From a virus: a stretch of 33,986 bases of DNA. The position numbers and the translations under genes are program-made. How positions within the stretch are numbered: position 1 is the first letter of the stretch; every line of letters begins with the position of its first letter. The DNA is taken from the UHGV virus genome UHGV-0175871; one strand, written 5' to 3'. Below the pieces are notes generated by a model. It was not told where the DNA came from. It did not search any database and worked only from the letters and a program-made list of their open reading frames with translations. Of this stretch, positions 1 through 33,986 are shown one piece after another.

Positions 1-228
1 ATGTGTTCCAACGAAAAGGTCCGTGATTGGCATCGTGCTGATGTGATTGCGGGACTTAAGAAAAGAAAGCTCTCTTTATCAGCTCTTTCTCGGCAGTTTG
101 GTTATGCGCCAACAACATTAGCTAATGCGCTAGAACGGCACTGGCCAAAGGGCGAACAGATTATTGCTAACGCCCTTGAAACTAAACCGGAAGTCATCTG
201 GCCTAGCCGATATCAAGCAGGTGAATAA
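1..228 (+). CDS. ner: Ner, DNA-binding negative regulator of early transcription
   Basis: 75-aa product [48 protein letters not shown]... matches my recollection of Mu Ner; lies immediately upstream of the transposase gene. Confidence 0.9.
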
Positions 229-229
229 T

Positions 230-2221
230 ATGGAACTTTGGGTGTCACCGAAAGAGTGTGCAAATCTTCCTGGCTTGCCGAAAACATCAGCTGGTGTGAT
301 TTATGTCGCTAAGAAGCAAGGATGGCAAAACCGCACTAGAGCAGGTGTCAAAGGAGGTAAAGCAATTGAATACAATGCTAACTCTTTACCTGTTGAAGCG
401 AAAGCGGCGTTATTGCTTAGACAAGGAGAGATTGAAACAAGCCAGGGCCGTTTTGAAATCGCCCGCCCCACGCTGGAAGCCCACGATTATGATCGTGAGG
501 TGCTGTGGAGCAAATGGGATAACGCCAGCGATTCCCAGCGCAGACTTGCTGAAAAATGGTTGCCTGCAGTTCAGGCCGCAGACGAAATGCTGAACCAGGG
601 GATTTCAACAAAAACGGCTTTTGCGACCGTTGCAGGGCATTACCAGGTCAGTGCATCCACTTTGCGTGACAAGTATTACCAGGTACAGAAGTTTGCGAAG
701 CCTGACTGGGCGGCTGCGCTTGTTGATGGACGTGGTGCATCCCGTCGCAACGTTCACAAAAGTGAATTTGACGAGGATGCCTGGCAGTTTCTGATTGCAG
801 ATTATCTGCGACCGGAAAAACCCGCCTTTCGCAAATGTTATGAGCGTCTGGAACTGGCAGCACGTGAGCATGGCTGGAATATTCCCTCCCGTGCCACGGC
901 CTTTCGCCGGATTCAGCAACTGGACGAGGCAATGGTTGTTGCCTGCCGTGAAGGTGAACATGCACTGATGCATCTGATACCGGCACAGCAGCGAACTGTG
1001 GAACACCTGGACGCCATGCAGTGGATCAACGGCGACGGTTATCTGCATAACGTCTTTGTACGCTGGTTTAACGGTGATGTGATCCGCCCGAAAACATGGT
1101 TCTGGCAGGATGTGAAAACCCGAAAAATTCTGGGCTGGCGCTGCGATGTGAGCGAGAACATTGATTCAATTCGCCTCTCGTTCATGGATGTGGTGACACG
1201 CTACGGCATCCCGGAAGATTTTCACATCACCATTGATAACACCCGTGGGGCAGCGAATAAATGGCTGACGGGGGGCGCGCCCAATCGTTACCGCTTTAAG
1301 GTGAAAGAGGACGACCCAAAGGGACTGTTTTTACTGATGGGCGCGAAAATGCACTGGACAAGCGTTGTTGCCGGTAAAGGCTGGGGCCAGGCAAAACCTG
1401 TTGAACGTGCTTTCGGTGTTGGTGGGCTTGAGGAATACGTTGATAAGCATCCGGCACTGGCTGGCGCATATACGGGGCCAAATCCGCAGGCAAAACCTGA
1501 TAACTATGGCGACCGTGCTGTTGATGCAGAGCTGTTTCTGAAAACCCTTGCTGAAGGTGTGGCGATGTTCAATGCCAGAACAGGCCGTGAAACAGAAATG
1601 TGCGGGGGCAAACTCTCGTTTGATGATGTTTTCGAGCGTGAATACGCCAGAACGATTGTGCGTAAGCCAACCGAAGAACAAAAACGGATGCTGTTACTGC
1701 CTGCCGAAGCGGTGAACGTTTCACGCAAAGGCGAGTTTACGCTTAAAGTTGGCGGCTCCCTTAAAGGCGCGAAAAACGTTTATTACAACATGGCGTTAAT
1801 GAATGCAGGCGTGAAAAAAGTTGTGGTCAGGTTTGATCCGCAGCAGCTACACAGCACAGTTTATTGCTACACCCTAGACGGTCGGTTTATCTGTGAAGCG
1901 GAATGTTTGGCACCTGTTGCATTTAATGATGCTGCGGCAGGCCGTGAATATCGCCGCCGCCAGAAACAACTGAAATCTGCAACTAAAGCAGCCATTAAGG
2001 CGCAGAAACAAATGGACGCGCTGGAAGTTGCTGAACTGCTGCCGCAGATAGCCGAACCAGCAGCACCAGAATCAAGGGTTGTTGGTATTTTCCGGCCTGT
2101 GGGTAACACAGTACGGGTTAAATATCGCACCCCCGATGATAAATACGAACCCGCTCGTGATGAATATCTGAATCAGTCACTGGATATTCTGGAACAGAAA
2201 AGACGTAAAAAAGCCATTTAA
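230..2221 (+). CDS. A: Mu transposase MuA (DDE transposase)
   Basis: 663 aa from ATG at 230 ([18 protein letters not shown]...), one base after the ner stop; the ORF-track start at 164 is an in-frame upstream extension overlapping ner. Length and sequence recall Mu A. Confidence 0.93.
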
Positions 2222-2259
2222 TTAACGTTTAAACAAAATTTAATTACGAGGTTATTCAG

Positions 2260-3219
2260 ATGAATATTTCCGATATTCGCGCAGGACTGCGCACGCTTGT
2301 AGAAAATGGAGAAACCACGCTGACACGCATCGCCAGTGAATCAGGCGTGGCCCTGAGCACAGTCAGTGGTTTTGTGAATGATAAATATAACGGCAACATG
2401 GAATCAGTCGGGCGCACACTGGAACGCTGGCTGGAAAACTATCATCGCGCAGAAGAACTGCCGGAACCCCCGCGTTTTGTGGAAACTGCAACAGCCCGTC
2501 AAATCTGGACAAGTATGCGTTTTGCTAATCTGACCGGAACCATTGCTGTTATCTGCGGTAATCCAGGAGTGGGTAAAAGCGAAGCAGCCCGTGAATTTTG
2601 TCGCACTAATAATAATGTCTGGATGATCACCATTGCGCCATCCCGTGCCAGTACGCTGGAATGTCTGACTGAACTTGCCGAAGAGTTGGGAATGAATAAT
2701 GCACCATGTCGCAAAGGGCCGCTTTCCCGTAACCTGCGTCGCCGCCTGAAAGGAACGCAGGGACTGGTCATTGTTGACGAAGCTGATCACCTTGACACCG
2801 AAGCGCTGGAAGAGCTCCGTCTGTTACAGGAGTCCGCCTGTATTGGCCTTGTTCTGATGGGGAATCACCGTGTTTATTCAAATATGACCGCTAATGGCGA
2901 CAGAACAATTGAGTTTGCCCGTCTGTTTTCCCGTATTGCAAAGCGCACAGCAATTAATAAAACCAAAGAAGACGATGTAAACGCAATTGCGGATGCCTGG
3001 CAGATTACCGGGAAAAATGAACGGGAATTATTACAGCAGATTGCACAAACGCCTGGTGCGCTCCGCATTATGAATCAAACGCTGCGCCTTGCTGTTATGA
3101 ATGCCTTCGGTAAAGGCGAACGTGTTAATGAGGATTATCTGCGTGAGGCTTACAAAGAGTTAGACCAGGACGTTGATGTTTCGATGCTGCTGGGTGTGCA
3201 AGGGGATGCTGAATCATGA
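2260..3219 (+). CDS. B: MuB, ATP-dependent target DNA activator
   Basis: 319 aa with Walker A motif GNPGVGKS and Walker B-like IVDEAD; positioned directly after A as in Mu. Confidence 0.9.
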
Positions 3220-3443
3220 TGTCACGGAATATCAAAATGGCAACGGAAGTAAAGACCTGGTTACAGGAGCGCGGCAGCCACGTCAACGAATCCTGGCTGG
3301 GCGTGGCCCGCCCGGTGCTTGAAATCACCTGCCCACCACCGGAGCTTGTCAGGAATGCTGTCAGGATTATGGAGCATAAATCCGGGGTTGCCCGTTCCGT
3401 ATGGACGGCCCGCCTTAATGGTTGCCAGATTATCTGGCGTTAA
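3216..3443 (+). CDS. kil: Small early protein at the Mu kil position (possible Kil)
   Basis: 75-aa ORF whose ATG overlaps the B stop (ATGATG); assignment is by position and size only. Confidence 0.45.
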
Positions 3444-3475
3444 TAACGGCTTATTTATTTGTGAGGAATAACAAA

Positions 3476-3745
3476 ATGGCAAAAGTAATCTTTGAATTTA
3501 ACCGCATGGAAGATGTTGAGTTTCAGAAAAAAGGAGGTTTCTTTGTAGGAATGAGTGTGCAACTGGGAGAACAGTCTCCTAAGGAGCAAATCGGACCGCA
3601 TGACGTGATGGCAGGCATTATCAAGAGCATGGCTCCTGAAATTATTGAAAAAGCAACCCAGGAGTTGTTGAAGTCAGCCAGAGAACTTGGGCTGGAAGCC
3701 GAAGGCGAGTTATTCCGGTATAACCCGGATGCAGCCAAACATTAA
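3476..3745 (+). CDS. Hypothetical early protein
   Basis: 89 aa from the internal ATG at 3476 (MAKVIFEFNRMEDV...), preceded by GAGGAA; the upstream part of the track ORF overlaps the previous gene. Confidence 0.5.
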   Translation: MAKVIFEFNRMEDVEFQKKGGFFVGMSVQLGEQSPKEQIGPHDVMAGIIKSMAPEIIEKATQELLKSARELGLEAEGELFRYNPDAAKH

Positions 3746-3761
3746 TTTCAGGAAAGGAGGC

Positions 3762-4052
3762 ATGATGATAATCCCTCGCAAAAGATGGTCACGCGAAGAC
3801 CGGGAATTTATCGAAACCAACGTCGGGAAGCTGACCGTTGAAGAAATGGCGAAAAAACTGAACGTTGCCCCAACCGCCCTACAGGCACATGCCAGAAGGC
3901 ACGGAATATCGTTGTGTGCATACCGGGTCAGTGAGCACGACAAATATTTGTGTCGTGAACTTTATAAAGAAGGCCTGGCTATTCATGTGATAGCCCAGAA
4001 GATGGAATTAAGCAATCGTGCTGTATCCGGCATTGTATACAGCGAATATTAA
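3762..4052 (+). CDS. Hypothetical early protein, possible HTH
   Basis: 96 aa from the ATGATG at 3762 with a strong AAGGAGG RBS at 3754-3760; segment LTVEEMAKKLNVAPTALQAHARRHG looks helix-turn-helix-like. Confidence 0.55.
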   Translation: MMIIPRKRWSREDREFIETNVGKLTVEEMAKKLNVAPTALQAHARRHGISLCAYRVSEHDKYLCRELYKEGLAIHVIAQKMELSNRAVSGIVYSEY

Positions 4053-4072
4053 TTAACAGGAGCTTTATTTAT

Positions 4073-4597
4073 ATGGCTAAACCAGCAAAACGAATCAAGA
4101 ACGCCGCAGCGGCTTATGTTCCGCAATCCCGCGATGCCGTGGTATGTGATATCCGCCGGATTGGTGACCTGCAACGCGAAGCGGCACGACTTGAAACGGA
4201 AATGAATGACGCTATCGCTGAGATTACGGAGAAATACGCCTCACAGATTGCACCCCTTAAAACCAGTATTGAAACCCTTTCAAAAGGCGTTCAGGGATGG
4301 TGTGAAGCGAACCGTGACGAACTGACGAACGGCGGCAAGGTGAAGACGGCGAACCTGGTAACCGGCGATGTGTCATGGCGTCAGCGCCCACCATCGGTAA
4401 GTATTCGCGGTGTGGATGCGGTGATGGAAACACTGGAGCGTCTTGGCCTGCAACGCTTTATTCGCACGAAACAGGAAATCAACAAGGAAGCGATTTTACT
4501 GGAACCGAAAGCGGTCGCAGGTGTTGCCGGAATTACAGTTAAATCGGGCATTGAAGATTTTTCTATTATTCCGTTTGAACAGGAAGCCGGTATTTAA
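4073..4597 (+). CDS. gam: Gam, host-nuclease inhibitor (Ku-like DNA-end-binding protein)
   Basis: 174 aa MAKPAKRIKNAAAAYVPQSRDAV...GIEDFSIIPFEQEAGI, matching the length and sequence I recall for Mu Gam. Confidence 0.9.
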   Translation: MAKPAKRIKNAAAAYVPQSRDAVVCDIRRIGDLQREAARLETEMNDAIAEITEKYASQIAPLKTSIETLSKGVQGWCEANRDELTNGGKVKTANLVTGDVSWRQRPPSVSIRGVDAVMETLERLGLQRFIRTKQEINKEAILLEPKAVAGVAGITVKSGIEDFSIIPFEQEAGI

Positions 4598-4695
4598 TAT
4601 CACCATTAATATTTAATTAGTTCACTTTCTTTTAATTATGGCGCGATGCGTCAGGGGATTGCTCGCGCCTGAAACAGATTACTGAGGAATAAAAA

Positions 4696-5235
4696 ATGGT
4701 TGATGCAAAAGTTCTGAACGGTGTCAGTACATTATTACGGGCTTACGGACGTCTGACCTGTGGCGTTCTGGCGGAAAAAATGAATATGCCACCTTCCTCA
4801 ATGGTGTATTTCCTGCGTGATGCGGTTGATGCCGGAGTTCTCACTGAATGCAACGGATTTTATGACGTTCCGCGCCCTCGTCCGACGCCGCCAGTAAGAC
4901 GAAACGCAACGGAGCCCCCCGCTGTTGATGATGCTCAATGGTGCGCTTTCCGCCGCTCTTTGCCCTGGCTGGAAGGCAATGCCATTCCGGCACTGGCAAA
5001 AGAATTTGCGACAGGCGTACTGACCTGCGAGTCGGTTTACATCGTTGCTGAAGTGGATGACGAGATGTGCAAACAGGGGATGCCCCGTTTTGTGATGGCG
5101 TATATCGATATCCGACTGGGACGTTTTATTTGTGGCTCCAGTGGCTGGAATATCACCGACCACGTCCTGCGCTATCTCATTCTTGATTATTCACCGGTTC
5201 CGGCGGAAACACAGGAAATCAGCGAGCATGATTAA
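4696..5235 (+). CDS. Hypothetical protein of the semi-essential early region
   Basis: 179-aa ORF with GAGGAA RBS, in the variable gam-gemA interval; no family recognised. Confidence 0.5.
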   Translation: MVDAKVLNGVSTLLRAYGRLTCGVLAEKMNMPPSSMVYFLRDAVDAGVLTECNGFYDVPRPRPTPPVRRNATEPPAVDDAQWCAFRRSLPWLEGNAIPALAKEFATGVLTCESVYIVAEVDDEMCKQGMPRFVMAYIDIRLGRFICGSSGWNITDHVLRYLILDYSPVPAETQEISEHD

Positions 5236-5410
5236 GTCAATTGGCTTTGTCCTGCTGGTTGGCACCTGTGGGAATGATGCCTGCGATGCCATTCCGGTAA
5301 CGGAAAAAATCTGGCCCGCGGAGCAGGCATGTATGCAGGTGATGGAGCGCATACAAAAACGTTATCCCAATGAAATCTTTTATTGCGAAGAGGTATTACG
5401 AAATGAGTAA
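5228..5410 (+). CDS. Small putative secreted protein or lipoprotein
   Basis: 60 aa MIKSIGFVLLVGTCGNDACDA...: hydrophobic signal-like N-terminus followed by Cys (non-canonical lipobox VGTC) and four more Cys; ATG overlaps the upstream stop. Confidence 0.4.
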   Translation: MIKSIGFVLLVGTCGNDACDAIPVTEKIWPAEQACMQVMERIQKRYPNEIFYCEEVLRNE

Positions 5411-5738
5411 GCATATTTATGACGACCCTAAATATCGGGCTGAAATGCGGGCGCAACTGGTTGTCAGTGGATATACACCGGAGCAGGCCGATACAACTCT
5501 GACAGAACTGATGGGACAGCTTCCATTTGATGAAGCTGAATATGAATACTGGCTGAAGCAGTACAAGCTGGAAATTATGGAAAACACCACACTTCCATCG
5601 CTGATCAGAATAATAAAAAGCGTTGTCGACAATGCTTGTTATAGCGGTGATTGTCTGGCCGCAGCAATTGCGGCCAGCGCTCTGGTGAATCTGCTGAATG
5701 CTACAGGTGCAGTTGCTCCTGAATCCAGTTGCTCATAA
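5403..5738 (+). CDS. Hypothetical protein
   Basis: 111 aa from ATG 5403 (MSKHIYDDPKYRAEM...); its 3' end overlaps the convergent minus-strand gene by 38 bp. Confidence 0.45.
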   Translation: MSKHIYDDPKYRAEMRAQLVVSGYTPEQADTTLTELMGQLPFDEAEYEYWLKQYKLEIMENTTLPSLIRIIKSVVDNACYSGDCLAAAIAASALVNLLNATGAVAPESSCS

Positions 5739-6096
5739 GGGATTTTCCTGTAGACACAAGAATGTCCATTGAAGCGTCCATGCAGATTTTTTTGAGCCTG
5801 GTCATTATTTTCGGCTGGTTCAGTGCGTTAGCAAAATCCAGACCGCGCTGTGACAAACGGATATACCGGCACCTGAAAGAAACCTTGTCTCGACCGGAAT
5901 GAACGCCTGTTGATTCTGGTGTGGATAACAGGTCTGTTCCGGTAATAAAACCATTATCCAGCATTAACAGAAAGTGAAAGTAAAGCGCGTTCTCGTCGGG
6001 TACAGCATCGGAGAGTTCTGTGTTTTTTATGAATACGTCAGGAGAATCAATTAAAACGTTAAAAATGGTTTTCATTATTTCCAGATCAATTTTCAT
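5701..6096 (-). CDS. Hypothetical protein, the only minus-strand gene; AT-rich moron-like accessory gene
   Basis: 131 aa MKIDLEIMKTIFNVLIDSPDVF...; RBS AAAGGA about 8 nt before the ATG; noticeably more AT-rich than flanking phage genes; convergent with the early operon. Confidence 0.6.
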   Translation of the reverse strand: MKIDLEIMKTIFNVLIDSPDVFIKNTELSDAVPDENALYFHFLLMLDNGFITGTDLLSTPESTGVHSGRDKVSFRCRYIRLSQRGLDFANALNQPKIMTRLKKICMDASMDILVSTGKSLMSNWIQEQLHL

Positions 6097-6159
6097 GAAT
6101 CAAATCCTTTAATACGTTCAGGGCGGTGCAGCAACACCGCCTTCATGGAGATACGCATC

Positions 6160-6708
6160 ATGCGCGCATCATTGATTAAATTAATTCATGTCGCCCGTCG
6201 CGATCTACAACTCGACGATGACACTTACCGCGCCTTTCTGGTGCAGTGCACGGGCAAAACCAGTTGCCGCGAGCTGTCCGTTGCACAACTGGAACGGGTG
6301 CTCGATGCCATGAAAGAGCGCGGTTTTAAGAAGCAGAAAAAACATCCCCGCCGTCGCTTTAAGGGGCATGTCACACCGCGCGAGAAGATTTACAAAATCT
6401 GGCAGCAGATGTTCCTTGATGGTTTCGTTTCCGATATCAGCGACGCTGCGCTGGACAAATACGTTGAGCGCCTGACAGCCAGACGTAATGGCGGTCAGGG
6501 TGTTTCCACGCTGGCATGGTGTCACGGGGAATCGTTGCAGGTTGTGCTTGAAACGCTCAAACAGTGGCATATGCGCTGCATCCGTGAAGCCTTTGCCCGA
6601 CATGGTGTGCCTTTACCTGTGAGCGAAACTGGGCGGGAGCTGCGCGGCTATGATGCACTGACCAGTGCGTATGCCCGTGCACGAAACAGCGGGAGAATTG
6701 CTGTATGA
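6160..6708 (+). CDS. gemA: GemA, gene expression modulator
   Basis: MRASLIKLIHVARRDLQLDDDTYRA... matches my recollection of Mu GemA; GGAGA RBS 7 nt before ATG 6160; an in-frame upstream ATG at 6145 is an alternative start. Confidence 0.8.
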   Translation: MRASLIKLIHVARRDLQLDDDTYRAFLVQCTGKTSCRELSVAQLERVLDAMKERGFKKQKKHPRRRFKGHVTPREKIYKIWQQMFLDGFVSDISDAALDKYVERLTARRNGGQGVSTLAWCHGESLQVVLETLKQWHMRCIREAFARHGVPLPVSETGRELRGYDALTSAYARARNSGRIAV

Positions 6709-16897: not shown

Positions 16898-17209
16898 ATG
16901 AGTGAAAAAGCAGGAACCAAAGGCGCGAAAGCCGCAAAGAACAGCGCAGCACAGGAAAACCCGGCACCGCTGGCAGACGTTATTGTGGCTGACGGTCAGG
17001 CGAATGAACCACGTCCGGCTGAAGACCCGGTTACTGTACAGGGTGACGCCCCTGTCCGGCTGAACGTCCGGGCCGTGTCTGAAAACGGATTCTGGCGCTG
17101 TGGCCGTTTCTGGTCACATGCCGGTGAGGATGTGGCGGTGACCGCTGCGGTTGCCACCCGCCTGATGGCAGAGCCGAATCTGATTGTCCGGGAAGCGGAG
17201 AAAGGCTGA
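16898..17209 (+). CDS. Mu gp35-like protein
   Basis: 103 aa; position after major capsid gene; motif FWRCGRFW. Confidence 0.55.
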   Translation: MSEKAGTKGAKAAKNSAAQENPAPLADVIVADGQANEPRPAEDPVTVQGDAPVRLNVRAVSENGFWRCGRFWSHAGEDVAVTAAVATRLMAEPNLIVREAEKG

Positions 17210-17646
17210 TGGGGTATATCACGCAGGAAGACCTGTTACGCGCGGACGGCAATCTTGTCTGGAACATGGCGATTAACCGGGAAACCAACGAACTGGATGA
17301 AGACAAAATCCGTCAGGCCATCAGTGATGCCGAAGCGGAAATTGATTCGTTTCTGTCCCGCCGCTACCAGCTGCCGCTGGGGGTGACGGAAATCCCGCGC
17401 CCGCTGCAACGCGTGGCGGTATCGCTGGCGTTTTACTGGTTGTCAGAGCGTGACAATCAAATCACGGAGCTGATCCAGAAACGCTACGATGACGCCATTA
17501 AAACCCTGCGTGAGATGGCGAACGGCACCCGTGACCTGGGTCTGCCGACGTATGCCACCCCGGCAGAAACCGACCACGGGAAGATCATTGTAGTGGGTGC
17601 CAATGCCCGGCTGTTCACCCGTAACAACCTGAAAGGGGTGCTGTGA
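17209..17646 (+). CDS. Mu gp36-like protein (DUF1320, putative head-tail connector)
   Basis: 145 aa; start overlaps the previous stop. Confidence 0.55.
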   Translation: MGYITQEDLLRADGNLVWNMAINRETNELDEDKIRQAISDAEAEIDSFLSRRYQLPLGVTEIPRPLQRVAVSLAFYWLSERDNQITELIQKRYDDAIKTLREMANGTRDLGLPTYATPAETDHGKIIVVGANARLFTRNNLKGVL

Positions 17647-28038: not shown

Positions 28039-28848
28039 ATGTTTCATGTGGATAATCCGACGGGTGTGCCGGTGATGCCACCTGTCGCGGCTGAATTAAG
28101 CAAAACAACGCTTTATTTTACCGAAGGCGGGAATGGTATTCCGCCCACCTATCCGGGGCCGGACTGGTTTAATATTATTCAGTCCGAACTGCTGGAAATT
28201 CTCCGGCAGGCAAATATCAAACCGGATAAAAACACCACCGACCAGATTATGACGGCGCTGAAAAAACTGTTTATTACGAACAGTGGTTCAGCCGGAGCTA
28301 TTGCCGGATTAACCGGTCAGAATAATACGTTCCCGTATTTTACGGGCGAAGACACAATGGCATTAACGCCGCTCAGTGCTTTTGTGCGCGGTATTCTCGG
28401 GAAAAACACAGCCAGTGAAATTATCGACGCACTTTCATTACGTGACACGGTAAATAAAGCTAATAGTGCTGTACCGAATACCCGCAGGGTCAACGGCATG
28501 GCCCTGTCTTCGGATATCACCATCAGCAACATCAGTGGCAATGCCGGAACGGCAACCCGGCTTCAGACGGCCCGCAGGATTAACAATGTGCTGTTTGATG
28601 GCACCAGCGATATCACCATCAGCAGCACCGATTCCGGCGCTGTGCGTGATTTCAGATACACCAGCGAAGTGTTTCACAATCCCGGTGGTAACGAAATTTC
28701 CTGGGTATTTCGCGCGCCTTCAGGTTGTATTTTGTCAGGTATTAACGTTCAGGATACTGGCAGGAGCTCTGCGGATAACATCGGCGGCGTGTATTACAAA
28801 CAAACTCAGATTTATATCAATGGCGGATGGCGCACGGTATCCGGCTAA
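28039..28848 (+). CDS. Tail fibre protein, first module (short S-like fibre)
   Basis: 269 aa; FPYFTGEDTMALTPLSAFVRGILGKNTASEIIDAL resembles the distal conserved segment of P2 H / lambda Stf-type fibres. Confidence 0.7.
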   Translation: MFHVDNPTGVPVMPPVAAELSKTTLYFTEGGNGIPPTYPGPDWFNIIQSELLEILRQANIKPDKNTTDQIMTALKKLFITNSGSAGAIAGLTGQNNTFPYFTGEDTMALTPLSAFVRGILGKNTASEIIDALSLRDTVNKANSAVPNTRRVNGMALSSDITISNISGNAGTATRLQTARRINNVLFDGTSDITISSTDSGAVRDFRYTSEVFHNPGGNEISWVFRAPSGCILSGINVQDTGRSSADNIGGVYYKQTQIYINGGWRTVSG

Positions 28849-28862
28849 TTAAGGAGAAAATA

Positions 28863-29393
28863 ATGGAACTCAGAAACGTCACGCGTTATTACCCGGAAGA
28901 GATGCCTTATGGTGAAAACATTCAGTATTTCCGCAGTGAAGACGGACAGGATTTTTATGAATCACTGGATAAATTCACGAAGAAATACAAATTGTGTATT
29001 CACCCGGAAACCGGCGTGATTTATTCAATGGCGGAAGACGTGTCCCGTCTTTATCCGGCTGGCTTCACCATTGTGGAAGTGGATGAACTGCCGGAAGGTT
29101 TTGGCATTGAAGCCTGCTGGTATTACAAAGACGGCGAAGTGCTGCCGGTTCCTGTTGATTATTCGCAACTGGCAGAAAAACAACGCCAGAGCCTGCTGAA
29201 TGAAGCGAAGGACATCACCTCCGACTGGAAAACCGAGCTGGAGCTGGGCACCATCAGCGACGATGATAAAGCGCGTCTTACGCAGTGGATGGCATATATC
29301 AAAGCGGTAAAGGCTCTGGATTTAAGCACCGTTACTGACGAAGCCTCCTTTTACTCCATCAACTGGCCGGAGCGTCCCGATGCCGCAGCTTAA
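28863..29393 (+). CDS. Tail fibre assembly chaperone (Mu U / lambda Tfa family)
   Basis: 176 aa from ATG 28863 with AAGGAG RBS; C-terminal ...DDDKARLTQWMAYIKAVKALDLS typical of Tfa proteins. Confidence 0.7.
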   Translation: MELRNVTRYYPEEMPYGENIQYFRSEDGQDFYESLDKFTKKYKLCIHPETGVIYSMAEDVSRLYPAGFTIVEVDELPEGFGIEACWYYKDGEVLPVPVDYSQLAEKQRQSLLNEAKDITSDWKTELELGTISDDDKARLTQWMAYIKAVKALDLSTVTDEASFYSINWPERPDAAA

Positions 29394-32300
29394 AGGTGTG
29401 ATTAAAACGCCCACGGGAGAACCGCTGGGTGGCGCAACCATTACACTGACCTCCCTGCACAACCGTGCAGGGATTCTGAAAAGTGTTTTCAGCCATGTCA
29501 CCACACAGAACGGGGAATATGACTTCACCGTTCTGCCGGGTGTGTACAGCGTTCGCCTGACACAAAGCACACAGCGCCTTTCAGAAATCGGTGTCATCCG
29601 CGTTTATGAAGATTCAGCGGACGGTTCGCTGAATGATTTTCTGGGCGCAACCGATATTGACCTGCGCCCGGAAGCCCTGAAGAAATTCGAAGAGCTGGCG
29701 CAACAGGCGCAGCAAAGCGCAGAAAAAGCAGGAGAGCACGCCACCGCTGCTGAACAGGCCCGCCAGGATACAGAAGCGCTCGCCGGGGAAATACAGCAGG
29801 ATGCAGAAGAAATCGCGGGTAATGTGCAGAAAGCTGAAGAGCTGGCCTCTGAGACCAACCAGAATGCCGCCCGGGCAGAACAGGCGGTCAAAGATGCCGA
29901 TAAGATAGTCCAGAAAGCGGTCGATAAACTTGCTGATGCCGCAACGCTGACCGGTGAGGCAAAAGCCAGCGCCGAAGCGGCAGCAAAAAGCGAGCAGAGC
30001 GCGAAACAGCACAGGGACGAGGCGCAACGGATAGTTGATGACCTGAAGGGAACCAACGCCAGCACGACGCAAAAAGGCCTGGTGCAACTCTGTAGTGATA
30101 CAGACAACGACAGCGAAGAACTGGCCGCCACACCAAAAGCCGTCAAAACCGTCATGGACGAGACGAAAACAAAAGCGCCACTGGACAGCCCGGCATTCAT
30201 CGGCACGCCCACCACACCAACCCCGCCGGACGATGCGACCGGGCTGGAGATGGCGAACGCGGCATTTGTTCGCAAACTGCTTGCTGCGCTGGTTGACTCG
30301 TCACCGGAAGCCCTGGACACACTGAACGAGCTGGCAGCGGCGCTGGGCAATGACCCGGAGTTTGCGACAACAATCTTGAACGCGCTGGCGGGTAAACAAC
30401 CACTCAGTGACGTGTTAACCGCAATCAGTAATCTGGAAGAACGGGCAGATAATCTTCTGTGCTTTAATCATGACGGAAATGCTTCATTGTCTCCGCTGTC
30501 AGAAAAAGCCCGGTCACTGCTGGCACAGGCCACAGCGGAAGCCATGCGCAATGAGCTTGAGCTGAAAAGCGCAGCGGTAAGGGATATTCAGATAGACCTT
30601 TACGACAGCATGGAAGGCCGTGTTGCGCTTCCCGGTGCGTATGGTTACGGAATGACGGACGCCGGAGCACGTTCAATTATTGCCAGCGATATGGCGACTG
30701 TAGCCAGAACCGCTCACAACCTGCACCCGGGACGGTATTACACCTTTTCCACACAAACGGAAAAAACAACCGGAATAACAGAAATTATCTGGCTGGATAA
30801 TGGCCGGGGCGACAAAACCAGTCAGACAGCAACAAAGCTGGTTCTGTTCTTTGGAAAAGACGGACGGATTCTTATGACCGTTCGTGGCGATAATATCTCC
30901 GCCCCGGTCACCTGGACGAATCTGACGCCACAACTGGGCAATGCAGCACAAAAGGATGCGCAGGAGAGTATTTACGACCGCACCGAAGGCCGTCTGGCGG
31001 TTCCTGGCATGTTCGGATTCGGGAAAATATTTTCCAGCGGCGACAGGACCGAGTTTAAAACAGAGGCCGATTTTCTCCGCTGGGTAAAAACGGCAAAACC
31101 CGGACGCTATGCCGTTTATGCAGATACAAATGCGGTAATACAGGGCGTGCTGTTCAAGGGTACCGTTGAAATTATCTGGCCGGAACCTCAAACCAACCCC
31201 AATCCGGCATGTGTGGCTAAAATCATTATTTTTTACGGTATTAACGGCCACATTTATTACAATCGCTACTGGACTACCGGAGATGGTTATCTGGTTGGCT
31301 GGGAAAACCTGAAAGTCAACGAGGTTTCACTCCGGGCACTGATTGAAACCCGTGCGCCACTGAACAGTCCGACACTGACCGGAACGCCGTCCACGCCAAC
31401 ACCACCAGATGATGCAGCAGGTAATGAAATAGCCAATGCGGCGTTTGTCCGCAAACTGCTTGCTGCACTGGTTGACTCGTCACCGGAAGCCCTGGACACG
31501 CTGAACGAGCTGGCAGCGGCGCTGGGTAATGACCCGAACTTTGCGACGACAATCATGAACGCGCTGGCCGGTAAACAACCGCTGAACGATGTGCTGACGG
31601 CTATCAGTGAACTGACGCAACGGGCAGATAATCTTCTGTGCTTTAATCAGGACGGGAATGCTTCACTGTCTCCACTGTCAGAAAAAGCCCGGCTGCTGCT
31701 TGCTCAGACTACAGCGGAAGACATGCTGTCTGTTCTTGAGTTGCAAAAGAATACGTACAGCGCCCAGAGTGATATTTATGACCGGGCGGAAGATAAACTG
31801 GCTCTTCCTGGTGCATTCGGATTTGGTTATCCGTTTGGAAAAGAAGACCAGCTCACCTTTAAAAACACATCGGAGCTGACCACGTGGGTAACAAACGCTT
31901 ATCCGGGACGTTATGCGGTAACCGTCCCTAATCAGGGAACAATCATACCTGGTGTTTATTTTACGGGTATTCTTGATGTTATCTGGCAGATGAACCAGTA
32001 CGAAACAAAGCCCCCGTCAGATGCTGCAAAATGCATAATGTTTTATGCAGGAAACGGTGATATCTGGTTTAACCGATATATTTACGGGCGTCTTGTTGGC
32101 TGGGAGCGAATAAAGATATCCACAGCCGATATTTATAATGTTATGGGGGGGACCATCAGCAATGAGTGGGGAGACCCTGATGTTGGTGGACTGATTATTG
32201 CTGCATACCAGGGAACGACTGACGGAGATACAAAAATCAAGCTTGTGAGAGGGCAATATTACGCAGGCTCACGGCTGGGGCCGGTGGGAATTTCAGCGCC

Positions 32301-32454
32301 CTACAATCCAGCCGGAACGTATTCATCAAGCCCGCAATTCTACGTTATGGGAAATGCAGGTCATTCATTACCGGGTACATATCGCGCCCTGTCCGGGGTA
32401 ACAAACACCTATGGTTCCGACGCGATGATTGGGCTTTTTATTCGCACAGCGTGA
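29380..32454 (+). CDS. Side tail fibre protein, lambda Stf-like, with internal tandem duplication
   Basis: 1024 aa; N-terminal ...IGVIRVYEDSADGSLNDFL; Ala/Glu/Gln-rich coiled shaft; conserved TQKGLVQLCS...LAATPKAVKTVMDETKTKAPLDSPA...LDTLNELAAALGNDPEFATT..NALAGKQP block occurring twice. Confidence 0.85.
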   Translation: MPQLKGVIKTPTGEPLGGATITLTSLHNRAGILKSVFSHVTTQNGEYDFTVLPGVYSVRLTQSTQRLSEIGVIRVYEDSADGSLNDFLGATDIDLRPEALKKFEELAQQAQQSAEKAGEHATAAEQARQDTEALAGEIQQDAEEIAGNVQKAEELASETNQNAARAEQAVKDADKIVQKAVDKLADAATLTGEAKASAEAAAKSEQSAKQHRDEAQRIVDDLKGTNASTTQKGLVQLCSDTDNDSEELAATPKAVKTVMDETKTKAPLDSPAFIGTPTTPTPPDDATGLEMANAAFVRKLLAALVDSSPEALDTLNELAAALGNDPEFATTILNALAGKQPLSDVLTAISNLEERADNLLCFNHDGNASLSPLSEKARSLLAQATAEAMRNELELKSAAVRDIQIDLYDSMEGRVALPGAYGYGMTDAGARSIIASDMATVARTAHNLHPGRYYTFSTQTEKTTGITEIIWLDNGRGDKTSQTATKLVLFFGKDGRILMTVRGDNISAPVTWTNLTPQLGNAAQKDAQESIYDRTEGRLAVPGMFGFGKIFSSGDRTEFKTEADFLRWVKTAKPGRYAVYADTNAVIQGVLFKGTVEIIWPEPQTNPNPACVAKIIIFYGINGHIYYNRYWTTGDGYLVGWENLKVNEVSLRALIETRAPLNSPTLTGTPSTPTPPDDAAGNEIANAAFVRKLLAALVDSSPEALDTLNELAAALGNDPNFATTIMNALAGKQPLNDVLTAISELTQRADNLLCFNQDGNASLSPLSEKARLLLAQTTAEDMLSVLELQKNTYSAQSDIYDRAEDKLALPGAFGFGYPFGKEDQLTFKNTSELTTWVTNAYPGRYAVTVPNQGTIIPGVYFTGILDVIWQMNQYETKPPSDAAKCIMFYAGNGDIWFNRYIYGRLVGWERIKISTADIYNVMGGTISNEWGDPDVGGLIIAAYQGTTDGDTKIKLVRGQYYAGSRLGPVGISAPYNPAGTYSSSPQFYVMGNAGHSLPGTYRALSGVTNTYGSDAMIGLFIRTA
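30175..30546 (+). repeat. Copy 1 of the ~372-bp direct repeat inside the tail fibre gene
   Basis: Aligns in frame with 31354..31725, about 80-90% identity by eye, with perfect blocks of 26-32 bp. Confidence 0.85.
31354..31725 (+). repeat. Copy 2 of the ~372-bp direct repeat inside the tail fibre gene
   Basis: See copy 1; offset 1179 bp (393 codons). Confidence 0.85.
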
Positions 32455-33031
32455 GGAATGCATCGTGGAAATCAAAGAAATCATTAATCCCCGCTATACA
32501 GAAAATAGCGCTGTAGACTGTGACGTTTGGTTTGACGGCCAGCCGCAGCCAGTCCCTTACACTGCCACTCCTGATGATACATCAACAATCGGTAAGCGCA
32601 TCTGGCAGGAACTGCAAAGCGGCAAATGGGGCGAAATCGCCCCGTTCACCATCACGCCGGAGCTTATCGCAGCGGCAAAAGATGCCAAAAAGATGGAAAT
32701 CGAGGCGTGGCGCACAGAACAGGAAGCGCAGCCGTTCACGTTCGAATGGAACGGTCGCACCTGGAACGCTGGCCCCGACTCACTGGCCCGTCTTTATCCT
32801 GTGGTAATGGCGGCGAAATCTGACACAGCGCGGGACGTGATGACGTGGGGTGACGCCGATAATCAACAGGTGAAACTGTCAATGCCGGAACTGGAAGAAC
32901 TGGCGACAGCAATGGCGCAGGCACAGGTCGATCGCAATGACGGGATTTATCAGCGCCAGCGTGAAATGAAGGAGCAGCTTTCCCGGCTGTCCATACTGGA
33001 CGAGGTGAGAGCGTTAACTGTCGGTGATTAA
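32429..33031 (+). CDS. Putative tail fibre assembly chaperone, second module
   Basis: About 190-200 aa; likely GTG start at 32465 after GAGGAA (the track start is a TTG overlapping the fibre gene); assignment by position after the fibre gene. Confidence 0.45.
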   Translation: MGFLFAQREECIVEIKEIINPRYTENSAVDCDVWFDGQPQPVPYTATPDDTSTIGKRIWQELQSGKWGEIAPFTITPELIAAAKDAKKMEIEAWRTEQEAQPFTFEWNGRTWNAGPDSLARLYPVVMAAKSDTARDVMTWGDADNQQVKLSMPELEELATAMAQAQVDRNDGIYQRQREMKEQLSRLSILDEVRALTVGD

Positions 33032-33053
33032 ATAATCAGTATGTATAGTTTAT

Positions 33054-33081
33054 GACGATCGATAACATCATATCGATCGTC
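33054..33081 (+). promoter_or_regulatory. GATC-containing inverted repeat upstream of com-mom (candidate Dam-methylation-sensitive operator)
   Basis: GACGATCGATA-ACATCA-TATCGATCGTC: 11-bp arms each with a GATC, about 75 bp upstream of com. Confidence 0.55.
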
Positions 33082-33154
33082 GGTTTGCATCAATTGTGAT
33101 TAAATACCCCCAGCCCTCCGGGCGCTCATGTCTGGTTATTACACAGGGGGAATC

Positions 33155-33340
33155 ATGGACTCTGTTCGCTGTAAAAACTGCAATAAATTACTGTTTAAAG
33201 GAGGTTTTAAGCATATAGAAATTAAATGCCCTCGCTGTAAACGTTACATTGTCATATCGAATGCCAAAGAGCATCCCACGGAGCTGTATTGTGGGAAAAG
33301 AGAAGAAATCACGCATTCTGACAAAACCCTGCGTTATTGA
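33155..33340 (+). CDS. com: Com, zinc-finger translational activator of mom
   Basis: 61 aa from ATG 33155 after AGGGGG; [10 protein letters not shown]...[13 protein letters not shown]...[22 protein letters not shown] matches Mu Com. Confidence 0.8.
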
Positions 33341-33986
33341 GTATGAAGGCCGGATTGTCGGCTATGGTTCAAAGGAGCTGCGCGTTGAAACCATATCCTG
33401 CTGGCTGGCCCGCACAATCATTCAGACAAAACACTATTCTCGCCGTTTTGTGAATAACTCCTACCTGCATCTTGGCGTATTCAGCGGACGTGATCTGGTT
33501 GGCGTTCTTCAGTGGGGATATGCCCTTAACCCCAACTCAGGGCGTCGGGTCGTGCTTGAAACGGATAACCGGGGCTATATGGAACTGAATCGCATGTGGC
33601 TACACGACGACATGCCCCGCAACTCTGAATCACGGGCCATCAGTTACGCGCTGAAAACCATCAGGTTACTGTATCCGTCAGTTGAGTGGGTTCAGTCTTT
33701 TGCAGACGAACGCTGCGGACGTGCTGGCGTGGTATATCAGGCGTCGAATTTTGATTTTATAGGCAGCCACGAAAGCACGTTCTACGAACTGGACGGCGAG
33801 TGGTATCACGAGATAGCGATGAACGCGATTAAGCGCGGAGGGCAACGAGGTGTGTATTTACGGGCTAATAAGGAGCGGGCCGTGGTACACAAATTTAATC
33901 AGTATCGCTACATCAGATTCCTGAATAAGCGCGCAAAAAAGCGCCTAAACACCAAGCTATTCAGGGTTCAGCCATACCCGAAGTGA
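33291..33986 (+). CDS. mom: Mom, DNA modification enzyme (adenine modification, anti-restriction)
   Basis: Sequence ...[15 protein letters not shown]...[23 protein letters not shown] matches Mu Mom; GTG at 33291 gives 231 aa; in-frame ATGs at 33249 and 33261 are alternative starts; overlaps the 3' end of com. Confidence 0.85.

Follow-up and report, generated by a model that had tools for sequence, protein, structure and literature searches.

A probably non-invertible two-fibre receptor-binding operon at the G-segment position of a mosaic transposable prophage lineage

Introduction

Bacteriophage Mu gains more than one receptor specificity through its G segment, an arrangement of S-U, the inverted pair U'-S', gix sites and the invertase Gin that lies between gp48 and the mom regulatory region. 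In the in situ structure of Mu, the N-terminus of gp49 docks on loop 133–155 of gp48 (PMC11915804). Mu-like phages that dispense with the invertible segment have already been published: BcepMu and KS10 are transposable Mu-like myophages whose right ends lack an invertible G region, and the right end of KS10 also has two putative fibre genes (PMC2628397).

A cassette of a different kind is found in two phage elements of integrase type and lambdoid organisation. In the Stx2e phage phiP27 (NC_003356), genes L54–L57 run in one direction, with no invertase among them, directly behind Mu-type gp46, gp47 and gp48; their products are, in order, a first fibre, a Caudo_TAP Tfa, a second fibre with PF08400 at its N-terminus and a DUF4376 protein. 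In Rac-SA53 (KU052037), tail1–tail4 follow the baseplate genes in the same order, also co-oriented and without an invertase.

PF08400 fibres have structurally described relatives. Stf of lambda (Ur-lambda) is an accessory long fibre beside another receptor-binding protein, in which a PF08400 collar and a linker precede a coiled-coil shaft and a Phage_fiber_2 repeat, with receptor binding at the distal end. In lambda, a siphophage, 12 copies of the Stf collar surround the exposed gpV/gpM junction of the tail tip, a type of surface that is covered by sheath and baseplate in a myophage. In the Vibrio myophage XM1, whose contractile tail has a simple wedge resembling that of Mu, (gp16)2-gp17, the trimeric fibre gp40 (PDB 7KJK) is additional to the baseplate spikes: six trimers (18 copies) sit on the connector and terminator at the neck, where its authors proposed that it reinforces the head-tail joint. 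The chaperone of lambda Stf is a Caudo_TAP Tfa; DUF4376 proteins, of the V22 gp27 type, are experimentally proven fibre chaperones in the Alteromonas phages V22 and A5 only.

Here, we analyse a 33,986-nt stretch of a Mu-like virus genome, UHGV-0175871 (the window), in which two fibre-plus-chaperone modules lie between gp48 and com. We consider it likely that this region is a fixed, non-invertible two-fibre receptor-binding operon of a mosaic transposable prophage lineage.

Results and discussion

The window carries the genes of a Mu-like transposable phage: MuA/MuB, Gam, Mor, Mu-type late genes and com/mom are all present, and the Pfam families Gam, Gp11, GemA, Mor, Gp27, F and Gp36 are found. 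Over positions 1–5201, DNA identity to Mu A, B and gam is about 90%, and the early genes and mom together are about 89% DNA-identical to Mu. Close relatives adjoin differing host genes (ddp, pduF, yehQ, mdtO), consistent with varied insertion by transposition rather than site-specific integration; the ends of the window's own phage lie outside the stretch. All features described below are on the plus strand. The mom regulatory region (33046–33154) aligns to the Mu stretch from the 3' end of gin to com, and retains two of Mu's three GATC sites (33057–33060 and 33075–33078). It is followed by com (33155–33340, 61 aa, PF10122), which is 73% identical to Mu Com from 33155 on and most likely starts at ATG 33155, as chosen by PGAP in the relative L002, rather than at the upstream ATG 33128, and by mom (33249–33986; PF25680, E 4e-75), whose product is 96.7% identical to Mu Mom.

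Mu-likeness at the DNA level is confined to the early region and com/mom. Specifically, gp47 is only 38% identical to its Mu counterpart and the whole virion module is non-Mu, so that the phage is a mosaic: its early genes and com/mom are Mu-like, but its contractile-tail module is not. The idea that Mu has exchanged its G segment for something special is rejected, because the entire virion module is non-Mu and the cassette also occurs in phiP27 and Rac-SA53.

Four tightly coupled genes connect the baseplate genes to com/mom. Upstream of them lies a gene for a gp48/YmfQ-type baseplate wedge protein (27451–28035; PF10076 Phage_Mu_Gp48, E 4e-32; 31% identity to Mu gp48), the expected docking partner of fibre 1. 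It is followed by genes for an S-type fibre, a U-type Tfa, a PF08400 fibre and a DUF4376 protein. The baseplate genes have a GC content of 0.60, against about 0.5 in the cassette, module 1 included. The original prediction described two co-oriented fibre-plus-chaperone modules where Mu has its G segment and gin, with com directly behind the second chaperone. This description holds: the four open reading frames are where it placed them, their families can be assigned, the modules fill the Mu slot from S to gin exactly, with Mu homology returning about 15 nt past the second chaperone stop, and com, then mom, comes next. Both fibre genes are intact: their reading frames are uninterrupted, and the alignments with homologues extend to the C-terminal ends of these.

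Fibre 1 (28039–28848, 269 aa) is an S-type short tail fibre that starts 3 nt past the gp48 stop. It aligns with Mu S residues 1–200 (E 9e-21), with residues 1–81 of the solved Mu S structure (PDB 5YVQ/9KI1, E 1.4e-21) and with the tail fibre family phrog_1833 (E 7e-108). Its N-terminus, which corresponds to Mu S residues 1–81, the part that docks on gp48 in Mu, is conserved across the lineage. The C-terminal tip (residues ~197–269) is exchangeable, being 77% identical to that of Rac-SA53 tail1 and also matching the C-terminus of the 'short tail fiber' 9CUY.

Immediately downstream is the gene for a U-type Tfa, a tail fibre assembly chaperone for fibre 1. The mechanical reading frame spans 28827–29393 (188 aa); the start is most likely ATG 28863, which gives 176 aa (28863–29393), lies 14 nt past the fibre 1 stop, has an AAGGAG Shine-Dalgarno motif and is equivalent to the start that PGAP picks in L002. 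The protein matches PF02413 Caudo_TAP (E 9e-22, 78.1 bits, cut-off 22.1), Mu U' (E 1.5e-26), PDB 5YVQ_B (E 2e-16) and phrog_136.

Fibre 2 (29380–32454, 1024 aa) is an Stf-like fibre, identified by PF08400 at its N-terminus (93.4 bits, cut-off 26.6), by Phage_fiber_2 and by phrog_2636 (E 4e-247); residues 4–1024 align to Rac-SA53 tail3 at 65.5% identity. Its gene, stf, shares its first 14 nt with the end of the Tfa frame and is preceded by a Shine-Dalgarno motif of its own. The N-terminal collar/adaptor domain (residues 1–100; 29380–29679) has two homologues of solved structure, residues 1–94 of lambda Stf (9E7M, E 1.5e-9) and the collar spike gp40 of XM1 (7KJK, E 1.2e-10). The homology to gp40 (its residues 4–188) covers the Ig-like N-terminal domain and the coiled coil over residues 3–187 of fibre 2, and similarity beyond residue ~187 is undetectable. 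A coiled-coil shaft (residues 101–225) and a Phage_fiber_2 repeat (226–270) follow at 29680–30189 (PF03406, E 1e-15), a segment that also matches Mu S residues 99–154.

The remainder of fibre 2 is built from duplicated units. Repeat R1 (residues 265–400, 30172–30579) is 83% identical in amino acids to repeat R2 (657–793, 31348–31758) and 96% identical to Rac tail3, while R2 matches 'tail collar fibers gp4' of PDB 9D93 (E 1.2e-10). Between them lie the paralogous globular domains D1 (400–530) and D2 (530–657) at 30577–31350, and beyond R2 the distal domain D3 (793–925) and the C-terminal tip (925–1024) at 31756–32454, which together form the putative receptor-binding end. D1, D2 and D3 are mutually 30–44% identical and have the common motif IYDR.EG.LA.PG.FGFG. 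In overall order, from collar to distal end, fibre 2 is laid out like lambda Stf, except that the R and D repeats are not lambda's.

The last gene of the cassette encodes a DUF4376 protein (PF14301, E 3.5e-17, 63.3 bits, cut-off 25, the domain being C-terminal). The mechanical reading frame begins at TTG 32429 (32429–33031, 200 aa); the start is most likely GTG 32465, preceded by a GAGGAA Shine-Dalgarno motif and giving 188 aa (32465–33031), in keeping with homologues of 187–191 aa. This start lies 10 nt past the stf stop, an adjacency that is the same in phiP27, Rac-SA53 and the lineage loci. The protein is 82% identical to phiP27 L57 (77–82% across Rac and phiP27), and its AF2 model has a pLDDT of 88; a search of the PDB with the model returned no significant solved structural neighbour. 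By analogy with V22 and A5, and by gene adjacency, it is plausibly the chaperone of fibre 2, and to that extent the role that the original prediction gave the second small protein can be kept.

The cassette is shared by a lineage present in 54 of 5,426 complete E. coli genomes (about 1%), compared with 46 that have Mu-type baseplate genes, and every lineage locus that reaches far enough has the same four-gene order. Within the lineage, both fibres have conserved N-terminal adaptors, but their distal parts and the chaperones are mosaics that are shared with unrelated prophages. In particular, fibre 2 residues 1–100 are 89–99% identical in 20 of the 21 loci having them (80% in the remaining locus, L015), compared with 41–98% for the coiled coil, 32–98% for Tfa and 70–84% for the DUF4376 protein. 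The arrangement is common and already annotated, a known variant rather than a new mechanism.

Although phiP27 and Rac-SA53 have the same cassette, in phiP27 at the same baseplate-adjacent position, they differ from the window in having neither transposase nor mom, and their virions are distant: the tail proteins of phiP27 are 27–37% identical to those of the window, and those of Rac-SA53 have no detectable similarity. The cassettes themselves are closer. Rac-SA53 Tfa is 69% identical to that of the window and tail3 is up to 98% identical to the stf body, with 90–98% identity over fibre 2 residues 226–540. However, the Mu S-type N-terminus of fibre 1 is absent from phiP27 L54 and Rac tail1, and phiP27 L56, at 490 aa, lacks the R/D duplication of fibre 2. 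BcepMu and KS10 have other hosts and other fibre families (P2-like in BcepMu), and lack a PF08400 fibre, a DUF4376 protein and a Mu-type com/mom at about 89% DNA identity. Compared with Mu, in which S (over its N-terminal 200 residues) and U/U' are homologous to fibre 1 and Tfa, the window lacks gin, gix, an inverted gene pair and the constant/variable split of S; its second specificity resides in a fibre of different structure, which has a separate adaptor and is paired with a putative chaperone of another family. The purpose, recognition of more than one type of receptor, is that of the Mu system, but the two specificities are presumably simultaneous, not alternative as in Mu.

According to the original prediction, host range would be hard-wired, either by simultaneous fibres or through a direct repeat. 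The first option is the one that we retain: the tight coupling of the genes and the differing virion-docking N-termini make it most likely that both fibres are present at the same time. Expressed from one late operon, both would be produced together and mounted on every virion. As in Mu, six trimers of fibre 1 would dock on the gp48 loop, and fibre 1 is probably what triggers the baseplate. The adaptor of fibre 2 is of a distinct type, one that rings tube-like hexamers in lambda (gpV/gpM) and the neck in the myophage XM1, and because this adaptor differs from that of fibre 1, fibre 2 would dock at a separate site and may act as a long primary-adsorption fibre.

The neck is the sole precedent for such docking in a sheathed tail. 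We tentatively propose, as a possible arrangement that falls short of a probable one, that fibre 2 is neck-mounted through its PF08400 collar as in XM1, while fibre 1 takes the gp48 sites. The neck proteins of the window have no sequence match to those of XM1, and the gp40 gene, unlike stf, lies far from the tail genes. If correct, adsorption would be two-tiered, with long neck fibres binding first and short baseplate fibres triggering, and PF08400 would be a portable 'ring-clamp' adaptor that moves side-fibre bodies between siphophages (at the lambda tail tip) and contractile-tailed phages (at the neck), which would explain the 90–98% identity of stf bodies between otherwise unrelated virions.

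It is somewhat unlikely, yet compatible with part of the evidence, that both fibres are on the virion with fibre 2 at the baseplate periphery, on a second gp48 site, on gp47 or as a branch on fibre 1. XM1 gp17, the gp48 equivalent, bears six spikes at each of two distinct sites; stf lies within the baseplate/fibre gene block; and Klebsiella/Raoultella relatives with a similar tail module have two S-type fibres behind one gp48 and no PF08400 fibre, an arrangement that also counts against the two-fibre operon that we favour. Furthermore, in a co-variation test, the identity of the Stf N-domain correlated best with that of gp48 (Spearman r 0.64, p 0.002, n=21), but this correlation is confounded by linkage, which together with shared ancestry predicts it alone, and it singles out no partner. 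Against a peripheral site, the only assemblies in which the PF08400 domain has been seen, at the XM1 neck and at lambda gpV/gpM, are rings that close around tube-like hexamers, and the domain is dissimilar to the S-type baseplate-docking N-terminus.

A further reading, which we regard as improbable, is that the virion has only the 269-aa fibre and that stf and the DUF4376 gene are passengers, acquired by recombination from a co-resident prophage of lambdoid or phiP27-like type. Such an origin would fit the 90–98% identity of the distal two-thirds of stf to Rac-SA53 tail3, the closeness of the DUF4376 protein to its Rac and phiP27 homologues and the lower GC content of the cassette. It would also fit the state of module 2 in relatives: this module is reduced to an N-terminal remnant before com in L041, L021 and L015, and PGAP annotates stf as a pseudogene in L003 and L043. 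Module 2 is thus dispensable or decaying in some relatives, which counts against a working two-fibre operon. However, the fibre 2 adaptor is lineage-specific, as conserved as the core tail proteins and merely 37–38% identical to those of Rac tail3 and phiP27 L56, which argues against recent capture, as capture would have brought the donor's adaptor. In addition, stf is translationally placed within the operon by its overlap and ribosome-binding motif and is unbroken over 1024 codons, the truncated relatives still hold an adaptor-coding stub at the same position, and the GC drop is shared by module 1.

The second option of the original prediction, a host-range switch operating through a direct repeat, is unsupported. 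Fibre 2 does contain an in-frame direct repeat, with a left arm at 30160–30560 and a right arm at 31339–31739, spaced by 1179 nt; recombination between the arms would delete D1–D2 in frame and give a shorter alternative fibre. The longest exact runs (32, 31 and 26 nt) and the occurrence of one or two R units among relatives, as in the 777-aa fibre of L002, are what such a programmed switch might leave, and still we judge it very unlikely. The ~400-nt arms are only ~80% identical (83% over a 300-nt core), and 46 of the 77 mismatches fall at codon position 3, indicating that both arms are kept by purifying selection. A deletion would be irreversible, and simple R1/R2 deletion would not yield the L002 fibre, whose C-terminus is only 28% identical. 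A diversity-generating retroelement acting on the fibre gene is likewise rejected: the mismatches have no adenine bias, and Pfam searches of the window, including alternative-frame and 20 other ORFs, found neither a reverse transcriptase nor a site-specific recombinase. Rather than a switch, the repeat is an ordinary duplication whose copies have diverged.

A Mu-type invertible G segment is rejected as well, because invertase gene, gix sites and inverted gene set are all missing. The absence of a serine-recombinase ORF and of gix-like inverted repeats, both part of the original prediction, withstood directed searches. In six frames of the whole window, tblastn with Mu Gin gave a best E of 1.0, and the same search recovered Gin at 75% identity (E 9e-89) in the Mu-like insert of LC727895 (L005); the 10 largest alternative-frame ORFs of the interval have no Pfam hits, and none of the lineage loci has a Gin hit. 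Searches for gixL, allowing up to 3 mismatches, and for a degenerate gix pattern gave 0 hits, and every 26-mer of the window agrees with gixL at fewer than 17 of 26 positions, the best being no better than in shuffled sequence. Inverted repeats in the region are all ≤20 nt and 75–88% complementary; with the same tool, the gix repeats of Mu were recovered as 41 nt at 93%, and L005 gave an inverted repeat of 181 nt. An oppositely oriented second set of fibre C-terminus and chaperone, of which L005 exemplifies the positive case, is absent from the region, as is any match to the Mu S' C-terminus.

Genes for pin are frequent in E. coli on e14, Rac or Qin-type elements, and fibre 1 has LSLRDTV as a recognisable conserved peptide where gixL sits in Mu S, so a host Pin/Gin/Hin-type invertase might be imagined to act in trans on diverged sites; this hidden inversion is effectively refuted by the sequence, in which all four genes are co-directional with no inverted alternative set to switch in, the inverted repeats are short and the best gixL match is at chance level.

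Under the preferred reading of a fixed two-fibre operon, host range would shift over evolutionary time, by horizontal swapping of distal modules together with their cognate chaperones, rather than by Gin-type switching within a lysate. In one relative, an SGNH/GDSL hydrolase replaces the distal part behind the conserved adaptor, as expected of a swappable receptor-binding slot.

A fixed four-gene fibre cassette occupies the S-to-gin slot of a Mu-like prophage

The window is a Mu-like transposable prophage. Positions 1–5201, comprising A, B, gam and their neighbours, share ~90% DNA identity with Mu, and com/mom share ~89%, with Mom 96.7% identical at the protein level. Pfam matches in the window include Gam, Gp11, GemA, Mor, Gp27, F and Gp36. 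Relatives adjoin varied chromosomal genes (ddp, pduF, yehQ and mdtO), as transposition would predict. The morphogenesis genes are of non-Mu type: gp47 and gp48 are 38% and 31% identical to their Mu counterparts, and the sequenced phages nearest to the tail module are Klebsiella phage Kp4866-3 (56%) and Vibrio and Shewanella Mu-like phages (~50%).

Directly downstream of gp48/YmfQ (27451–28035, plus strand), four plus-strand genes form the two co-oriented fibre-plus-chaperone modules that the original prediction placed at 28039–33031. Specifically, module 1 comprises an S-type fibre of 269 aa with a Mu S N-terminus (fibre 1, 28039–28848) and a Tfa of 176 aa (28863–29393; Caudo_TAP, Mu U type), while module 2 comprises an Stf-like fibre of 1024 aa with a PF08400 N-terminus and Phage_fiber_2 (fibre 2, stf, 29380–32454) and a DUF4376 protein of 188 aa belonging to a fibre chaperone family (32465–33031). 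The junctions are tight, measuring 3 nt, 14 nt, a 14-nt overlap and 10 nt in gene order, and a Shine-Dalgarno motif precedes every cassette start. Three starts were revised relative to the mechanical ORFs (Tfa, 28863; the DUF4376 gene, 32465; com, 33155) guided by the lengths of homologues, by how PGAP annotates relatives and by ribosome-binding sites.

Mu homology resumes ~15 nt past the DUF4376 stop, in the mom regulatory region (33046–33154), indicating that the cassette occupies exactly the S-to-gin slot of Mu. Two of Mu's three Dam/OxyR GATC sites are retained in this region (33057–33060 and 33075–33078), and the third position reads ATCAATTG. In Mu, the first GATC site falls within the final 15 nt of gin; the conserved block thus starts where gin would end. 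A promoter and terminator scan of 27.4–33.4 kb gave counts not above those of shuffled sequence, with no convincing internal terminator on the plus strand. GC content, 0.59–0.60 for gp47 and gp48, drops to 0.49 for the S-like and Tfa genes precisely at the 3-nt gp48/S junction (window 27451–29393), consistent with a recombination boundary where the cassette begins.

The cassette lacks an invertase, gix sites and flanking inverted repeats

No serine recombinase is encoded in or near the cassette, as had been predicted. The best match of Mu Gin to the six frames of the whole window has an E-value of 1.0; in a control, the same query picks up an invertase of 75% identity (E 9e-89) in the Mu-like phage inserted in Stx phage LC727895, and that Mu-like phage carries Tfa and the S′ C-terminus in inverted orientation as well. 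Alternative-frame ORFs of the cassette interval gave zero Pfam matches, and neither a recombinase nor a reverse transcriptase was found elsewhere in the window. Searches for gixL at up to 3 mismatches and for a degenerate gix pattern gave 0 matches, and no 26-mer of the window reaches 17/26 positions against gixL, a comparison in which shuffled sequence attains 16–19. Furthermore, inverted repeats in the region do not exceed 20 nt, and the same tool recovers the 41-nt, 93% gix repeats of Mu and a 181-nt repeat in LC727895. The two fibre genes are both intact, their products aligning right up to the C-terminal ends of homologues. A search for a degenerate gix remnant where fibre 1 has the conserved LSLRDTV peptide found none.

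The original observation is therefore correct and carefully described, and its interpretation is partly right. The cassette is fixed and non-invertible; of the two routes to host-range diversification that the note proposed, simultaneous fibres are probable and the direct-repeat mechanism is rejected. The stf gene does contain an in-frame direct repeat with ~400-nt arms and exact runs of up to 32 nt, but a programmed direct-repeat switch or a DGR is rejected because the arms are only ~80% identical and their differences are concentrated at third codon positions, without adenine bias; the repeat reads as a diverged duplication.

The Mu-like insert in LC727895.1 has a variant arrangement of its own (4157–6689). 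Its G-like invertible segment, bounded by the 181-nt arms and followed downstream by Gin, has apparently one Tfa gene only, on the minus strand between the Sv and S′v C-termini. As the segment is oriented in this record, no Tfa would lie downstream of the S gene that is expressed.

The cassette recurs in a common mosaic prophage lineage

The same arrangement is present in known phages. The isolated Stx2e phage phiP27 has a Mu-type sheath, tube, tape measure, N-like protein, hub, V, gp46, gp47 and gp48, followed by the L54 fibre, L55 Tfa, L56 fibre with a PF08400 N-terminus and L57 DUF4376 protein, the last 82% identical to that of the window. Rac-SA53 carries the same gene set, tail1 to tail4, behind its baseplate genes. 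G-less Mu-like phages, BcepMu and KS10, have already been published (PMC2628397); our literature search found no account of phiP27-type virion morphology or of a Mu/phiP27-type hybrid lineage.

To define the lineage, we used gp48 identity of ≥89%. Because a gp48 search of genome contigs gave only 2 loci, both in Raoultella, the census was instead built from 32 IMG/VR loci and annotated E. coli loci. Every lineage locus that is long enough contains gp48, an S-like gene, Tfa, the Stf N-terminus, a variable body, DUF4376, com and mom, and none of the lineage loci in the census has a Gin match. The lineage is present in 54 of 5,426 complete E. coli genomes, 49 of them with a near-full match, and the exact DUF4376-to-com junction is present in at least 18 genomes at megablast stringency. 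Mu-type gp47-to-S DNA is present in 46 of the 5,426 complete genomes, so that the gin-less dual-fibre lineage is about as common in E. coli as prophages with a Mu-type baseplate. The cassette is thus recurrent, already annotated and part of a common mosaic lineage, and as a feature it is of modest interest. For annotation, it means that a Mu-like prophage without gin and the G segment is not degenerate.

The tape measure gene (window 21287–23080) encodes a protein 48–97% identical to those of loci L009–L040, whose other tail proteins are 92–100% identical, and is a strong mosaic hot spot in a tail module that is clonal elsewhere.

The two fibres are probably displayed together

Residues 1–81 of fibre 1 match the solved N-terminus of Mu S (E 1.4e-21), which in the in-situ Mu structure anchors six trimeric fibres on the gp48 docking loop (PMC11915804). 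Its last ~70 residues form a tip common to Rac-SA53 tail1 (77%) and the 'short tail fiber' of PDB 9CUY. Fibre 2 lacks an S-type N-terminus. Instead, its residues 3–187 are homologous to the collar spike gp40 of the Vibrio myophage XM1 (E 1.2e-10), and residues 3–90 to residues 1–94 of lambda Stf (E 1.5e-9). In XM1, six gp40 trimers are attached through an Ig-like domain to the neck, formed by connector gp4 and terminator gp5; in Ur-lambda, twelve Stf copies (four trimers) form a collar round the gpV/gpM junction. Both fibres would thus be made together and mounted at different virion sites, fibre 1 seated on gp48 and fibre 2 as a collar, the neck being the sole structural precedent in a sheathed tail.

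The rival reading is that fibre 2 docks at the baseplate rather than the neck. XM1 gp17, a gp48-like protein able to carry two spike sets, and the Klebsiella and Raoultella relatives, which use two S-type fibres, both point this way. In a PDB sequence search for a link to XM1 gp4/gp5 or Mu gp37, the neck proteins encoded at 17643–18188 (gp37-like) and 18185–18796 matched nothing below E 0.3; a gp36-like protein is encoded at 17209–17646. When the Stf N-domain was compared for co-variation against every upstream virion protein of the lineage loci, variation was too low, and the sole signal, for gp48, is confounded by linkage. A search for virion proteins common to the cassette-bearing phages found none shared between Rac-SA53 and the window, and only distant tail homologues shared with phiP27. 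The docking site of a lambda-Stf-type collar adaptor on a contractile tail is the one point of real interest here, and the lineage would be a convenient system for studying it because its prophages are common in sequenced strains.

The 203-aa ORF at 18185–18796, at the Mu gp38 position between the tail-completion and sheath genes, has no match in Pfam or by PDB sequence search and is a candidate extra neck or tail component.

Tfa and the DUF4376 protein share no similarity by BLASTP; their sole link is phrog_11571, which one protein matches with its N-terminal part and the other with its C-terminal part. In Alteromonas phages V22 and A5, members of the DUF4376 family have been shown by experiment to act as intermolecular chaperones of fibres. 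The model of the window's DUF4376 protein is confident (pLDDT 88), and a Foldseek search of the PDB gave no significant solved neighbour.

Fibre adaptors follow the virion, while distal modules are exchanged

The first 100 residues of Stf are 89–99% conserved in 20 of the 21 lineage loci having them (80% in L015), resembling core tail proteins, while the Stf coiled coil (41–98%), Tfa (32–98%) and DUF4376 (70–84%) are mosaic. Conversely, the adaptor is only 37–38% identical to those of Rac-SA53 and phiP27, and Stf residues 226–540 are 90–98% identical to Rac tail3. This pattern indicates that the adaptor follows the virion and that distal modules are exchanged horizontally, and it gives the strongest reason to regard fibre 2 as a real virion part. 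Host range would then evolve through module swapping, without Gin-type switching. As a natural case, the cassette illustrates clearly how receptor-binding proteins are put together, with two virion-fixed adaptors each bearing freely exchanged distal modules and a cognate chaperone; this is of use in predicting host range and in the engineering of Mu-type or phiP27-type particles.

The distal end of the window's stf (D3 and tip, 31756–32454) has only 33 homologues among 5.8 billion clustered proteins, the closest being two partial-protein clusters at 100% identity and the next at 54%; this allele is rare.

In some relatives module 2 is reduced to an adaptor stub and in others it is called a pseudogene, indicating that it is dispensable for prophage persistence; module 2 may be accessory. 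In the sub-lineage of L041 (NZ_CM135150.1, 1552–5330) and the similar genomes H48–H54, gp48/YmfQ is lengthened to 324 aa, an additional 352-aa ORF lies upstream of the S-like gene, and stf is a 113-codon adaptor stub nearly abutting com. In L042 (NZ_CP041411.1, 3481–6207) the conserved Stf adaptor (301 aa) is retained, but a 100-aa ORF, a gene for a 456-aa SGNH/GDSL hydrolase and a small ORF take the place of the distal fibre and the DUF4376 gene. The arrangement points to a receptor-binding module that is enzymatic, possibly an O-antigen esterase.

In Klebsiella phage Kp4866-3 (L006, 3406–6803) and loci L029–L033 and L037, gp48 is ~60% identical, and neither a PF08400 fibre nor com/mom is present. 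In these relatives a Tfa-like gene separates a tandem pair of genes whose products have S-type N-termini (in Kp4866-3, 251 aa and 585 aa), which is a different route to two fibres on a similar baseplate.
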